64,000 nt of DNA from Sodaliphilus sp. (GCA_963643355.1 CAVIJE010000001.1:128620-192619); one strand, 5' to 3'. Positions 16,227 through 18,964 are shown, counted from the first letter of the stretch. Translations and numbers: made by a program. Notes: a model not told the origin generated them from the letters alone.

Positions 16227-16255
16227 TTGACAATATAGTTAGTTAAGACTAATAT
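16227..16255 (+). promoter_or_regulatory. putative promoter of the 16285-18964 module
   Basis: TTGACA (16227-16232), exactly 17 nt, TAATAT (16250-16255). It lies about 30 nt upstream of an AGGGGA SD and the ATG. Confidence 0.6.
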
Positions 16256-16284
16256 GTCCTTGTCAAGGAAATTTAGGGGATATT

Positions 16285-17664
16285 ATGATTGATATATTGC
16301 TATTGCCATTCATGTGTGTTTCTATTTCGAATCCACGAATTGCAAGTGCTGAGTTGGATAATCCGTCAATTTCTTTTAACTCAATCATCTCAACAACTGG
16401 CAACAAACTGTTTATGGATGATGATTACAAAAAGATGTACGTGGAGAAAAAAGCCATTCTATCCTACAAAGGGGAATATGCTGAAAAAGTTAGTGGTAAC
16501 AAAACTTATCTTACTGCCGAGAAGATGGAATTACCTACTGGTAATTTAAGATTTTATAATCGCTCATTAGATGTTAGCGGATCGCTTTCAAGGTTCAATA
16601 CGAACGACACGTATTATATTAATCTTGAGGACCGCATGATAACGGAGTTCCGCTTCATGACGGACGATCAAAACGTTACTGCATATGTATCCGATGAAAA
16701 TAGAATTAAGTTATTTGATGTTTTTCAAAAAGATGAATCAAAGGGATTGCCTAGCGGTTTATTAACCAAAGGTGCTTATTATTTAACCGTAAGTGGAAGT
16801 GGTTATACTGATGTTAACTACAAAATAAACATATTTGCCTCTTATGCAGACTCAAAGGAAAGACTCACGATAGATGAGGATTTCATGAGTAAATATACGG
16901 CTCTAGTTTGGGAATCGGATTATGTTCCTGGCACTGTTGATCCAATTGATGGAACAACAATTAGAACTGATTACAAACCTAGTAGAAGAAGCCCATGGTC
17001 CCATAAAGGAAGATTTGTGTCAGGCGAATTAAACAAACAATATCTTTATAGATCTGTGTATATTTGGACTAAAGACGCATACGAAGATTTATATAATGAT
17101 GTCCAACTTTATAAAAATAAACTTTTAGAAATTTCGAAGAACACGAAAGAGATAGCCACTAAATGGAGCACAACGTCAAGTGCTACTGGCGCAGCAGGGT
17201 TCTTTGTAACGTTTTTCCCGGTCGTTGGTGGGGTGTTAGGGACTGCACTTGGCGGAGTAAGCCTAGCCACCTCGATAATCGCCGCATGTATTGGAAGTTC
17301 AACTGAAATCGATACGGATTTAGCAATAAGACAATGCGGCGCGATCCTAGGGTCCTTGTATAAAAGAGCATCAGATGCAATATTATCATTTAAAGAAGGC
17401 GTTATTGTAAAATCATATACAAACGATACGAAATACACCAAACGACACTATCAAAAAATTAGATTTCAACCATATTTAGATTATTCAAGCAATGATATTT
17501 ATCAAATCGTTGAAAAAGGAGCAGATGAAGACAAGTACCCATCTTACGATGTTCTTCTCCGACACGGTGCCGACAATCAAATAATCAGCGATTGTCAAGG
17601 GATTTTTACCGCGTATAAGAATTATAAAGACATCAAACCATTAGTGTCATTGGAGGGCAAATAA
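16285..17664 (+). CDS. hypothetical secreted/membrane protein with a Gly-zipper hydrophobic hairpin
   Basis: 459-aa ORF with an SD. The hydrophobic N-terminus ends IASA-E. A beta-rich region reminiscent of a PPC-type sandwich (weak) is followed by GAAGFFVTFFPVVGGVLGTALGGVSLATSIIAACIGS and a C-terminal part of about 120 aa with no recognisable motif. Confidence 0.75.
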   Translation: MIDILLLPFMCVSISNPRIASAELDNPSISFNSIISTTGNKLFMDDDYKKMYVEKKAILSYKGEYAEKVSGNKTYLTAEKMELPTGNLRFYNRSLDVSGSLSRFNTNDTYYINLEDRMITEFRFMTDDQNVTAYVSDENRIKLFDVFQKDESKGLPSGLLTKGAYYLTVSGSGYTDVNYKINIFASYADSKERLTIDEDFMSKYTALVWESDYVPGTVDPIDGTTIRTDYKPSRRSPWSHKGRFVSGELNKQYLYRSVYIWTKDAYEDLYNDVQLYKNKLLEISKNTKEIATKWSTTSSATGAAGFFVTFFPVVGGVLGTALGGVSLATSIIAACIGSSTEIDTDLAIRQCGAILGSLYKRASDAILSFKEGVIVKSYTNDTKYTKRHYQKIRFQPYLDYSSNDIYQIVEKGADEDKYPSYDVLLRHGADNQIISDCQGIFTAYKNYKDIKPLVSLEGK

Positions 17665-17666
17665 TC

Positions 17667-18305
17667 ATGAAAAAAAGAAAATATATATTCATGTTCCTTT
17701 GCACTATTTCATTATTCACGACTTCTTGTAACAAACAAAATACAATTCAAGAAGAAATTGCTGTTTTAGAAAAAAACGGTTGTTTGTTATTAAATAAAAC
17801 ATACGAATATATCCATAAACACGCTTATGGCGCTGAAGGCAGGGGTCGTTTCTATGATATTTATGCCAAAGAATTAAAGTTTACTGGCAAATTTGAATAC
17901 TCCAAGACCGTAGGGAAAACCGAAGTCTACACAGCCGGAGCATTCAATGGTCAGGAAACGATGCTTTATTTCAGAGATGGCATAAACGTCGGCTTCAGCA
18001 CGAGGGATCCTCAATTCGGGCTGTCGCTTTTTGGCTGCACCTTAGGAAGCCCGACTCGTGACTACATGAATGACAGCTGGGATAATTCACTAATCGCTAA
18101 ATTCAACGCTCGTGGGTGGATTTGCACATATGAAAGACTTGAGGAAGAACATTCAGAACTTTCTATATTCGACATCAATGAGCCTATTGAACTTGTTCAT
18201 AGATATATGACTTACCAAGATAAGCTTCACGTTAATTTCGGCTTCGAAAACCAATATTCGCTATCCTGGAACATGATGTCCTTAGAAGTCTATCTTGATG
18301 AATGA
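17667..18305 (+). CDS. lipoprotein, unknown family (paralogue 1)
   Basis: 212 aa with signal peptide plus lipobox FTTSC. It starts 2 nt after the upstream stop and is a paralogue of 18338..18964. Confidence 0.85.
   Translation: MKKRKYIFMFLCTISLFTTSCNKQNTIQEEIAVLEKNGCLLLNKTYEYIHKHAYGAEGRGRFYDIYAKELKFTGKFEYSKTVGKTEVYTAGAFNGQETMLYFRDGINVGFSTRDPQFGLSLFGCTLGSPTRDYMNDSWDNSLIAKFNARGWICTYERLEEEHSELSIFDINEPIELVHRYMTYQDKLHVNFGFENQYSLSWNMMSLEVYLDE
17882..18040 (+). repeat. 159-nt block identical to 18541..18699
   Basis: Base-by-base comparison shows TACTGGCAAATTTGAATAC...TTTTTGGCTGCAC identical in both lipoprotein paralogues, while flanking codons carry many substitutions. Confidence 0.9.
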
Positions 18306-18337
18306 ACTCAAATATGACTATCGGGGAGATTAAGACC

Positions 18338-18964
18338 ATGAAGAAAAATAATATTTTATTGGCATTTCTTTGCACTATTCCATTATTCACGACTTCTTGC
18401 AACAAACAAAACACGATTCAAGAAGAAATCGCGGTTTTAGAGAATAATGGCTGCTTTTTCCTGAACAAAACCTTTCAAGAAATATATGACAAGTTGGGTT
18501 CTCGTAAATTCTATGACATCTATTTCGAAGAATTAAAATATACTGGCAAATTTGAATACTCCAAGACCGTAGGGAAAACCGAAGTCTACACAGCCGGAGC
18601 ATTCAATGGTCAGGAAACGATGCTTTATTTCAGAGATGGCATAAACGTCGGCTTCAGCACGAGGGATCCTCAATTCGGGCTGTCGCTTTTTGGCTGCACG
18701 ATAGGAAGCCCAAGCCACGGTTACATTACCAAATTTTGGGATGATTCAGTAGTTGCTAAATTCCATGAACGTGGGTGGGTATATGATTATCAGAGGTTAG
18801 AGAAAGAATATTCGGAACTTTCCGTGCTAGATATTAACCCGCCTATAAATACACCCCATAGATATATGTATTATCAAAACAAACTTCATGTTAACTATGG
18901 AATGAAGACGATAGAATCATTGGGTTGGAGCATGATATCTTTAGAAGTCTACCTTGACGAATAG
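18338..18964 (+). CDS. lipoprotein, unknown family (paralogue 2)
   Basis: The ORF track starts at 18302. The ATG at 18338 (MKKNNILLAFLCTIPLFTTSC) has a GGGGAG SD and gives a normal lipoprotein signal. Confidence 0.85.
   Translation: MKKNNILLAFLCTIPLFTTSCNKQNTIQEEIAVLENNGCFFLNKTFQEIYDKLGSRKFYDIYFEELKYTGKFEYSKTVGKTEVYTAGAFNGQETMLYFRDGINVGFSTRDPQFGLSLFGCTIGSPSHGYITKFWDDSVVAKFHERGWVYDYQRLEKEYSELSVLDINPPINTPHRYMYYQNKLHVNYGMKTIESLGWSMISLEVYLDE
18541..18699 (+). repeat. 159-nt block identical to 17882..18040
   Basis: Second copy, offset by 659 nt. Confidence 0.9.

Follow-up and report, generated by a model that had tools for sequence, protein, structure and literature searches.

In a 64,000-nucleotide stretch of DNA from Sodaliphilus sp. 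(GCA_963643355.1 CAVIJE010000001.1:128620-192619; hereafter the window, numbered 5′ to 3′ from its first letter), the region immediately 3′ of tuf (16227–18964) carries a promoter and three genes, which encode a large protein of 459 residues, here named BIG, and two lipoproteins, here named lipA and lipB. Judged by sequence comparison, this cassette is a new, narrowly distributed two-family system. A toxin with its immunity proteins is the best single explanation of the genomic patterns: the genes would form an autonomous cassette in which an exported, membrane-inserting BIG and its cognate lipoproteins provide bacteriocin-like antagonism and self-protection for a Mollicutes-like gut bacterium. 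We put this reading at slightly less than an even chance. It is favored because BIG combines a binding domain with a hidden zipper hairpin and no catalytic signature, because a partner gene is coupled to it, and because of the pattern in which the cassette decays and the co-varying alleles of its genes.

The family of BIG is small and has no name: among 5.8 billion proteins only 16 clusters were found, with 35–92% identity and a length of ∼440–490 residues throughout, and the lipoprotein family is as narrow (22 clusters; a wider search added only members of the same family). Every BIG gene is followed by a homologue of lipA/lipB (176–212 residues) with an overlap or a gap of no more than ∼30 nucleotides, and every intact BIG gene, in ∼15 distinct loci, adjoins an intact lipoprotein gene. 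By this evidence BIG and its lipoprotein constitute a strict two-gene cassette.

The cassette decays asymmetrically. One array (L010/L022), delineated by open reading frames (ORFs) and tblastn, reads BIG, lipoprotein, lipoprotein, BIG remnant, frameshifted lipoprotein, second BIG remnant and intact lipoprotein; of the remnants (at 4459–5429 in L010), the first consists of the C-terminal 30 residues, and in the second the first 20 residues are fused in frame to the last ∼25. In L009 (12638–12745) a BIG remnant again precedes an intact lipoprotein gene. Many more independent products of BIG deletion or truncation are present in the databases (P0043, P0046, P0051, P0052, P0079, P0087, P0049, P0055, P0062 and P0109). 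The internal deletions join the first ∼20–100 codons to the last ∼25–80, and several are followed by an intact lipoprotein gene. Invariant adjacency and a partner retained beside a lost BIG, the genomic signature of toxin/immunity pairs, are thus both present; protection itself is putative. The same decay bears on a non-toxic alternative, in which BIG would be a resident envelope protein, anchored by its hairpin (as two helices or a re-entrant loop) with the binding domain and C-terminus outside and the lipoprotein as a subunit. Such a complex would bind a host, dietary or cell-surface ligand, with strain variation, turnover of paralogues and the frequent loss of BIG reflecting immune or phage pressure on an exposed antigen or receptor. 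We regard it as the main rival, less likely than not and somewhat less likely than the toxin; lipoproteins that persist without BIG, while intact BIG never occurs alone, are not what an obligate complex predicts.

Among seven strains, amino-acid identity is 100% for FusA, 97–100% for RDD1 (the first RDD-domain protein downstream of the cassette), 92–99% for BIG, 84–100% for lipA and 87–100% for lipB. The strains fall into three allele groups that are the same in all three cassette genes, so that the alleles vary together, and the trio ranks with the most variable local sequence. Nucleotide identity to L030 is ∼0.95–1.0 in the flanks, 0.78–0.89 from the end of BIG through the first half of lipA (17181–18080) and 0.86 in the last third of lipB. 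Amino-acid replacements cluster at residues 340–364 and 401–459 of BIG, 28–58 of lipA and 128–152 of lipB; in these hot spots the local ratio of nonsynonymous to synonymous polymorphism (pN/pS) is ∼0.3–0.85, compared with 0.06 in RDD1. No gene-wide positive selection was found: the whole-gene ratios of nonsynonymous to synonymous substitution rates (dN/dS) are 0.07–0.18 for the trio and 0.03–0.09 for its neighbors; the elevated values are confined to the local hot spots. Neither phase-variation repeats nor invertible elements were detected, a further point against a variable surface complex.

The upstream boundary of the cassette is the intrinsic terminator of tuf. The tuf gene ends at 16104 and is followed at 16133–16160 (+ strand, as are all cassette features) by a hairpin (16133–16152) with an 8-bp G+C-rich stem and then a T-run. 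The promoter, TTGACA-17-TAATAT, occupies 16227–16255. Promoter-like hexamer pairs are not above chance in the region (13 found; 12.0 expected from shuffled sequence), and this one is credible not by count but because its spacing to the start codon is the same across 11 related loci. In an alignment of 190 nucleotides around the start in these loci, the TTG of the −35 element and the TA..AT of the −10 element are invariant, GGAGG is conserved, and every locus has the same ATG. The Shine–Dalgarno (SD) sequence of BIG in the window, AGGGG (16275–16279), together with the ATG (the pair spanning 16275–16287), is conserved in all aligned loci. The BIG ORF extends from 16285 to 17664. The lipA ORF (212 residues, 17667–18305) starts 2 nucleotides after the BIG stop codon, with its SD GGAGGG within the last BIG codons, and is translationally coupled to BIG. 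The longest lipB ORF would start at 18302 (220 residues), but the true start is most likely to be the ATG at 18338 (208 residues, 18338–18964), since this codon has the SD GGGGAG 8–9 nucleotides upstream, opens a conserved signal peptide (MKKNN) and is the identical start in L001; the longer ORF is probably unused. An intrinsic terminator was looked for 3′ of lipB and none was found, so transcription may run on into the RDD-domain gene at 19063. The G+C content falls from ∼0.48 in fusA and tuf to ∼0.36–0.39 in the trio, the lower value being the usual level of the window. A first-pass annotation, made from the sequence alone, had placed a promoter just 3′ of the tuf terminator, a 2-nucleotide gap between the 459-residue ORF and the first lipoprotein gene, and two tandem lipoprotein paralogues of ∼210 residues; the locus is laid out as it described.

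Aligned with each other, lipA and lipB share 71% identity (E = 4e-114). Both have basic, Lys-rich n-regions and the lipobox LFTTS before the Cys, the complete signals being MKKRKYIFMFLCTISLFTTS in lipA and MKKNNILLAFLCTIPLFTTS in lipB, each followed by Cys, and lipidation is predicted for both. The lipobox Cys is invariant in all BIG partners, and the family shares the core FYFRDGINVGFxTRDPQFGFSxFGxTIGSP. Over this conserved core (FRDGINVGFSTRDPQFG), a 159-nucleotide tract of lipA (17882–18040, + strand) is 100% identical to lipB (18541–18699), while the two genes are ∼65% identical elsewhere. The tract identity is absent from the sister species and therefore indicates recent gene conversion.

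The cassette lies 3′ of tuf only in the species of the window and its sister (L001, BIG 76% identical). In other loci the gene before it is clpB (L002), a 2-thiouracil desulfurase-family gene (L004), mscL (L027), a cyclophilin gene (L018), a 3-hydroxyacyl-CoA dehydrogenase gene near rplM–rpsI (L013) or a 2-hydroxyacid dehydrogenase gene (L016). A single genome carries the cassette at two sites (L008 and L012), and tandem double cassettes occur in L013, L014 and L025. The lipoprotein gene is present in two copies in the window and in L001/L026, independently in two copies in L018 and in at least three in L010. An accessory insertion within the str-operon neighborhood had been proposed; a promoter of its own and the other sites used in other species agree with this, but within its species the trio looks fixed rather than sporadically inserted. 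The carriers are a few Mollicutes-like metagenome-assembled genomes (MAGs) from the gut, one of which is labelled 'uncultured Mollicutes bacterium UMGS237'. The 'cleanbin' MAG titles of L006–L012 (Hallerella sp., Bacteroides uniformis, Escherichia coli, Faecalibacterium prausnitzii and Lachnospiraceae) are likely to be mislabelled, since these contigs are low in G+C, rich in lipoproteins and Mollicutes-like. No viral or plasmid copy of the cassette was present in IMG/VR, INPHARED, PLSDB, PHROGs or PADLOC and no flanking repeats were seen; an origin in a phage, plasmid or other mobile element was accordingly rejected.

The family alignment of BIG runs from an N-terminal motif through a variable linker and a β-rich domain to the blocks KYxALVWESDYVPG and LYRSxYIW, and continues with a helix, a hydrophobic stretch, another helix and a C-terminal part that ends in SDCQGTF. 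None of the three proteins had a significant match in Pfam, NCBIfam, PHROGs or PADLOC, and PDB sequence profiles were empty as well, so that no known family or enzyme was identified. The first-pass annotation had recognized no named family in the trio, which stands at the level of Pfam but not for the β-rich part of BIG (residues ∼60–190, 16462–16854, + strand). A BIG profile searched against 1.84 billion representatives gave 135 matches, mostly to profile positions ∼60–175, and most of these are repeated domains of giant proteins that Pfam identifies as PPC (PF04151) repeats. The full-length AlphaFold model of BIG, with a predicted local distance difference test (pLDDT) of 68, matches the collagen-binding domain of ColG (1nqd_B; Foldseek E = 8e-5, probability 1.00, template-modelling (TM) score 0.70 on the target), the PPC domain of Bacillus anthracis collagenase (5sv5, TM score 0.65), PliG and the receptor-binding domain of Clostridium perfringens enterotoxin (CPE), in all cases via residues ∼60–190 only. 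PF04151 itself is not matched by the BIG of the window at E ≤ 1, let alone at its gathering score. Its cutoff of 25.9 bits is passed by the distant full-length relatives P0073 (29.0) and P0112 (31.7), and P0053 and P0114 match below it. The β-rich region is therefore a PPC-type β-sandwich of ∼100 residues with a ColG s3b-like fold.

About 15 of the 135 profile matches are distant full-length relatives. Two of them, P0041 and P0042, retain the N-terminal motif of BIG, and P0114 is hypothetical protein BN85409740 of Alteracholeplasma palmae J233. The superfamily is predicted to comprise extracytoplasmic proteins of Mollicutes-like Bacilli, because P0053, P0073, P0112 and P0114 bear ordinary Sec signal peptides (e.g. 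MKKYFLILLFCLLILFFNVNYVYA followed by KD). Only W209, P215, R256, W261 and G439 are conserved across it, so a conserved catalytic site is unlikely and non-enzymatic action is favored.

In extracellular proteins PPC domains typically serve for binding, as a surface complex would require, and they are most familiar as parts of secreted proteases (Pfam PF04151). BIG might accordingly be sought among secreted enzymes, as an unrecognized hydrolase with a PPC domain that uses, for example, Cys437 (in SDCQG) and His388 and has the lipoprotein as its inhibitor, chaperone or substrate; we hold this to be very improbable. Lipoprotein inhibitors of secreted hydrolases exist, which counts in its favor, as does the conservation of Cys351, Cys437 and His388 among the close relatives of BIG. 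These three residues are not among the W, P, R, W and G that survive superfamily-wide, however; neither Pfam, NCBIfam nor PDB sequences gave a match, no hydrolase fold was matched despite a confident model, and a hydrophobic glycine-zipper segment of 44 residues is foreign to soluble hydrolases.

The remainder of BIG (residues 191–459, 16855–17661, + strand), with the motifs KYxALVWESDYVPG, LYRSxYIW and SDCQGxF, is an α/β module without detectable structural or Pfam relative. Residues 190–459, modelled from an alignment of 28 sequences, form one compact α/β unit (pLDDT 79, predicted TM score 0.80). Foldseek returned no match for this model in the PDB (best E = 0.07, TM score ≤ 0.2) or in BFVD (best E = 0.017), and the module has no Pfam match and empty PDB sequence profiles. 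As modelled, BIG thus joins a known binding fold to a module with no known structural relative. Despite its divergence, the C-terminal region can be followed as homologous through the whole superfamily, up to a final G.f...D.L motif, which rules out a polymorphic toxin with a swapped C-terminal domain. The first-pass description of an orphan C-terminal part is borne out in that Pfam, the PDB and BFVD offer no relative, although the part is not a swapped domain. An aerolysin- or CPE-like pore-forming fold was rejected, as the 190–459 model has no PDB match and CPE is matched only via its receptor-binding domain. A colicin- or ClyA-type α-pore-forming domain was rejected as well, since the module is mixed α/β with only two long helices and has no Pfam or PDB similarity.

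The hydrophobic segment in the middle of this module spans 44 residues (294–337, 17164–17295, + strand) in two halves split by Pro312, and its Kyte–Doolittle hydropathy reaches 1.7 over 19 residues. It carries small-xxx-small spacing, the GxxxGxxxG-type ladder of glycine-zipper membrane toxins: small residues at 298/302/305/309 and 315/319/323/326/330/337 are conserved as Gly/Ser across the BIG family, and G315, G319, G323, S326, S330 and G337, with Gly/Ser at i, i+4 and i+8, share a single face of the helix. When the family profile was subjected to Fourier analysis, hydropathy and Gly/Ser occupancy both peaked at 100°, the same as in the two flanking helices, whereas two control strands peak at 130–150°. 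The Gly/Ala-zipper hairpin of the first-pass annotation, whose quoted stretch of 37 residues corresponds to residues 302–338, therefore has support in its helical periodicity and conserved Gly/Ser positions, although AlphaFold draws strands here instead. The flanks of the hydrophobic stretch are packed into one unit, so a membrane should have both of them on one side, as in toxins with a stored insertion element, in which case the segment would be a stored insertion element or a hairpin-type anchor rather than a single-pass helix. As an anchor, its two proline-split parts of 18 and 24 residues could cross a bilayer twice, as a surface complex would need. In some distant relatives, however, the equivalent segment is amphipathic and contains charges, so that it is no constitutive anchor there.

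The leader of BIG comprises residues 1–22 (MIDILLLPFMCVSISNPRIASA, followed by Glu; 16285–16350, + strand) and ends in an AxA-type site. Its motif in the family alignment is M-I-[DS]-I-L-L-L-P-F-M-C-[LV]-S, with M10, C11 and S13 invariant, and MIDILLLPFMC-S is the most conserved part of residues 1–60 even between proteins that are ∼25% identical. Two relatives annotated from Met10 (P0004 and P0012) encode MIDILLLPFMC upstream, and since the SD and ATG are conserved in all aligned loci they too start at the upstream ATG. From locus to locus, synonymous changes are seen in the Leu, Pro and Phe codons of this peptide; it is thus the protein that is conserved, and an RNA or DNA element behind the conservation is ruled out. 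A hydrophobic core (ILLLPFMCVSI) precedes the small-x-small site (ASA before Glu; AKA in most relatives), which would allow cleavage by signal peptidase, and the leader aligns with canonical Sec signal peptides of P0053, P0073, P0112 and P0114. It occupies the place of a signal peptide. The basic n-region of a Sec signal is absent from every family member: the proteins begin MID, MIS or MVN, with no Lys or Arg before the hydrophobic region. The hydrophobic leader that had been noted at first is thus real but atypical. No MIDILLLPFMC-type leader was found on other proteins in ∼0.5 Mb of related sequence. Cys11 is not a lipobox Cys, as PFM before the Cys breaks positions −3 to −1 and the Cys is only 10 residues from the start. 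Nor is it taken to be the nucleophile of an Ntn-hydrolase exposed by autoprocessing, which has no support from fold or motif and whose propeptide would not normally be so conserved.

The missing positive charge, together with an acidic residue that is often present at position 3, disfavors the standard Sec route and leads to a further alternative, in which BIG is inserted from the cytoplasm: the leader would be no export signal, the PPC-type domain would remain inside with the hairpin or C-terminus reaching the surface, and the lipoprotein would be unrelated and merely co-transcribed. We find this scarcely probable. Homologues have canonical cleavable signal peptides at the same position, in the model the sequences on either side of the hydrophobic stretch belong to a single domain, and the strict, co-evolving pairing with an extracytoplasmic lipoprotein suggests an extracytoplasmic meeting place.

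The distant relatives of BIG have other neighbors, namely a cytoplasmic DUF6487 zinc-ribbon protein (L017 and L036) or a 114-residue protein with four transmembrane helices (L020). A cytoplasmic zinc-ribbon protein could not be a subunit of a surface complex, and the varied partners are reminiscent, by analogy, of compartment-specific immunity. BN85409740 and relatives of its type share with BIG full-length homology including a signal peptide, the PPC domain, a hydrophobic segment, the vW..Y.P / R..Y.W module and the C-terminal G.f...D.L; they differ from it in having ordinary Sec signals and DUF6487 or four-transmembrane neighbors and in lacking the lipoprotein partner and the MIDILLLPFMC motif. 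The DUF6487 proteins (CxxC...CxxC, no signal peptide) are encoded at L036 7368–7664 and L017 81–314, in two unrelated loci, one of them that of A. palmae, and each directly adjoins a distant BIG relative. At L020 (4803–6028 and 8001–9668) the distance between a distant BIG relative, which has a normal signal peptide, and a Pycsar-like pair of nucleotide cyclase and PycTM is 2 kb. In L004 (1–2758) the gene order mraZ–rsmH–(80 residues)–ftsA, without ftsI or mur genes between, hints at a relative without peptidoglycan synthesis; the related uncultured orders include both walled and wall-less species (PMC10868615).

The toxin/immunity reading can be set out as follows. BIG would be exported via its leader and its PPC-type domain would bind a surface ligand on a related target cell. 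The hydrophobic hairpin would then leave the module, enter the target membrane and self-associate via its small-residue faces, giving a leak or a pore. The lipoproteins of the producer, tethered to the outer leaflet, would attach to BIG, most probably at the variable C-terminal third, and so prevent insertion, and two diverged paralogues would broaden the range of BIG alleles that are neutralized.

Several observations weigh against this scheme. It is commoner for a bacteriocin locus to occur in only some of the strains of a species, whereas the trio lies 3′ of tuf in all seven contigs with identical Tuf and also in the sister species. The dN/dS values indicate that the genes are functional, constrained and under purifying selection, and the nearby lipoprotein of 717 residues (20843–22996) is as variable as the trio. 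The leader of BIG lacks the basic n-region of the at least 12 canonical lipoprotein signals in the window, and a plain Sec signal does not account for the extreme conservation of Met10, Cys11 and Ser13. The cassette has no linked genes for export or processing machinery. AlphaFold 2 draws the hydrophobic segment, with moderate confidence, as strands. The partner is not uniform in the distant subfamilies, which makes the immunity role an assumption. Fixation in the species, purifying selection, the equally variable 717-residue lipoprotein and the density of surface lipoproteins (at least 12 in 64 kb) would suit a surface complex, as would the relative in the wall-less Mollicute A. palmae, in which surface proteins need membrane anchoring. 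The toxin/immunity-like layout that had been proposed is accordingly supported in part, by the coupling, the expansion of paralogues, the asymmetric decay, the co-varying alleles and the differing sites, but a variable surface complex fits these patterns nearly as well, and fixation and purifying selection speak against a toxin.

Glycine-zipper toxins with compartment-specific and orphan immunity genes have been documented (PMC12744356; PMC5380434). The cassette resembles EsxX with ExiAB/ExiCD of Staphylococcus aureus (PMC12744356), TelE of Streptococcus gallolyticus (10.1101/2022.09.07.506920) and CdzC/CdzD/CdzI of Caulobacter (PMC5380434) in its hydrophobic GxxxGxxxG-type segment, in the tightly linked downstream partner gene, in the orphan partners beside lost toxin genes and in partners of differing compartments across relatives (lipoprotein, four-transmembrane or soluble cytoplasmic). 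Unlike these systems, BIG has no LXG or WXG domain and no sequence similarity to their toxins, and no genes for type VII, type VI or type I secretion systems (T7SS, T6SS and T1SS) were found in the neighborhoods of the loci. Its zipper is neither a C-terminal tip nor part of a small peptide but sits midway in a folded module of 270 residues, its partner is a lipoprotein of ∼190 residues from an unnamed family, and its toxicity is putative. With CPE and other toxins composed of a receptor-binding β-sandwich and a pore-forming module, BIG has in common a PPC-like β-sandwich resembling the claudin-binding C-CPE (Foldseek probability ∼1.0) and a second module in which a membrane-insertion element would be hidden; relative to CPE, the domain order is reversed, however, the second module has no structural similarity to the aerolysin-like pore-forming module, and the insertion element is helical in periodicity rather than an amphipathic β-hairpin. 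BIG is not a member of the EsxX, TelE, Cdz or CPE families, because it has no LXG, T7SS, T6SS or T1SS context, no aerolysin- or colicin-like fold and no swapped C-terminus.

LanI-type lipoproteins, such as NisI and SpaI, are immunity proteins of Gram-positive bacteriocin loci. The cassette is like these loci in pairing a membrane-tethered extracellular lipoprotein with a secreted membrane-active agent and in that more than one protective gene is possible; it differs in that there is no sequence similarity, that the agent would be a 50-kDa protein instead of a lantibiotic and that immunity by lipA and lipB is putative. That BIG represents a new structural class of toxin, with delivery by a receptor-binding PPC domain, zipper pores in the membranes of related cells, allele-specific immunity from a new lipoprotein family and a new lineage-specific leader signal for export or processing, seems to us unlikely.

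Upstream of the cassette the window carries rpoB, rpoC, a glycosyltransferase gene (minus strand), rpsL, rpsG, fusA and tuf. Downstream, three paralogous membrane proteins with RDD domains (19063–20358, 23075–24271 and 24249–25307) flank the 717-residue lipoprotein, an order that is kept in L001 and L026. This lipoprotein has a Ser/Thr/Glu-rich linker, a weak OB-fold match and a C-terminal part with 0.85–0.90 nucleotide identity between strains. A gene for a basic protein of 77 residues (20355–20588, minus strand) lies antisense between the RDD1 and 717-residue lipoprotein genes; it is kept in L026 and has no Pfam match. At least nine further canonical lipoprotein genes, densely spaced, are located at 28722–39915, 50743 and 60852; many of the products have Ser/Thr-rich linkers after the lipobox Cys, and several of the genes adjoin ABC-transporter genes.

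Almost nothing is known of competition or surface presentation in the abundant, uncultured Mollicutes-like Bacilli of the gut (RF39, RFN20, ML615J-28 and relatives of Acholeplasma). If the cassette is a true toxin/immunity system, it would be the first antagonism system for these organisms, and its pore-forming scaffold, countered by a lipoprotein, would be new; if it is a surface complex, BIG and its lipoprotein would be a variable, strain-typing antigen pair. On either reading, structural and cell-biological studies have concrete starting points in the module of 270 residues without a structural relative and in the invariant N-terminal motif.

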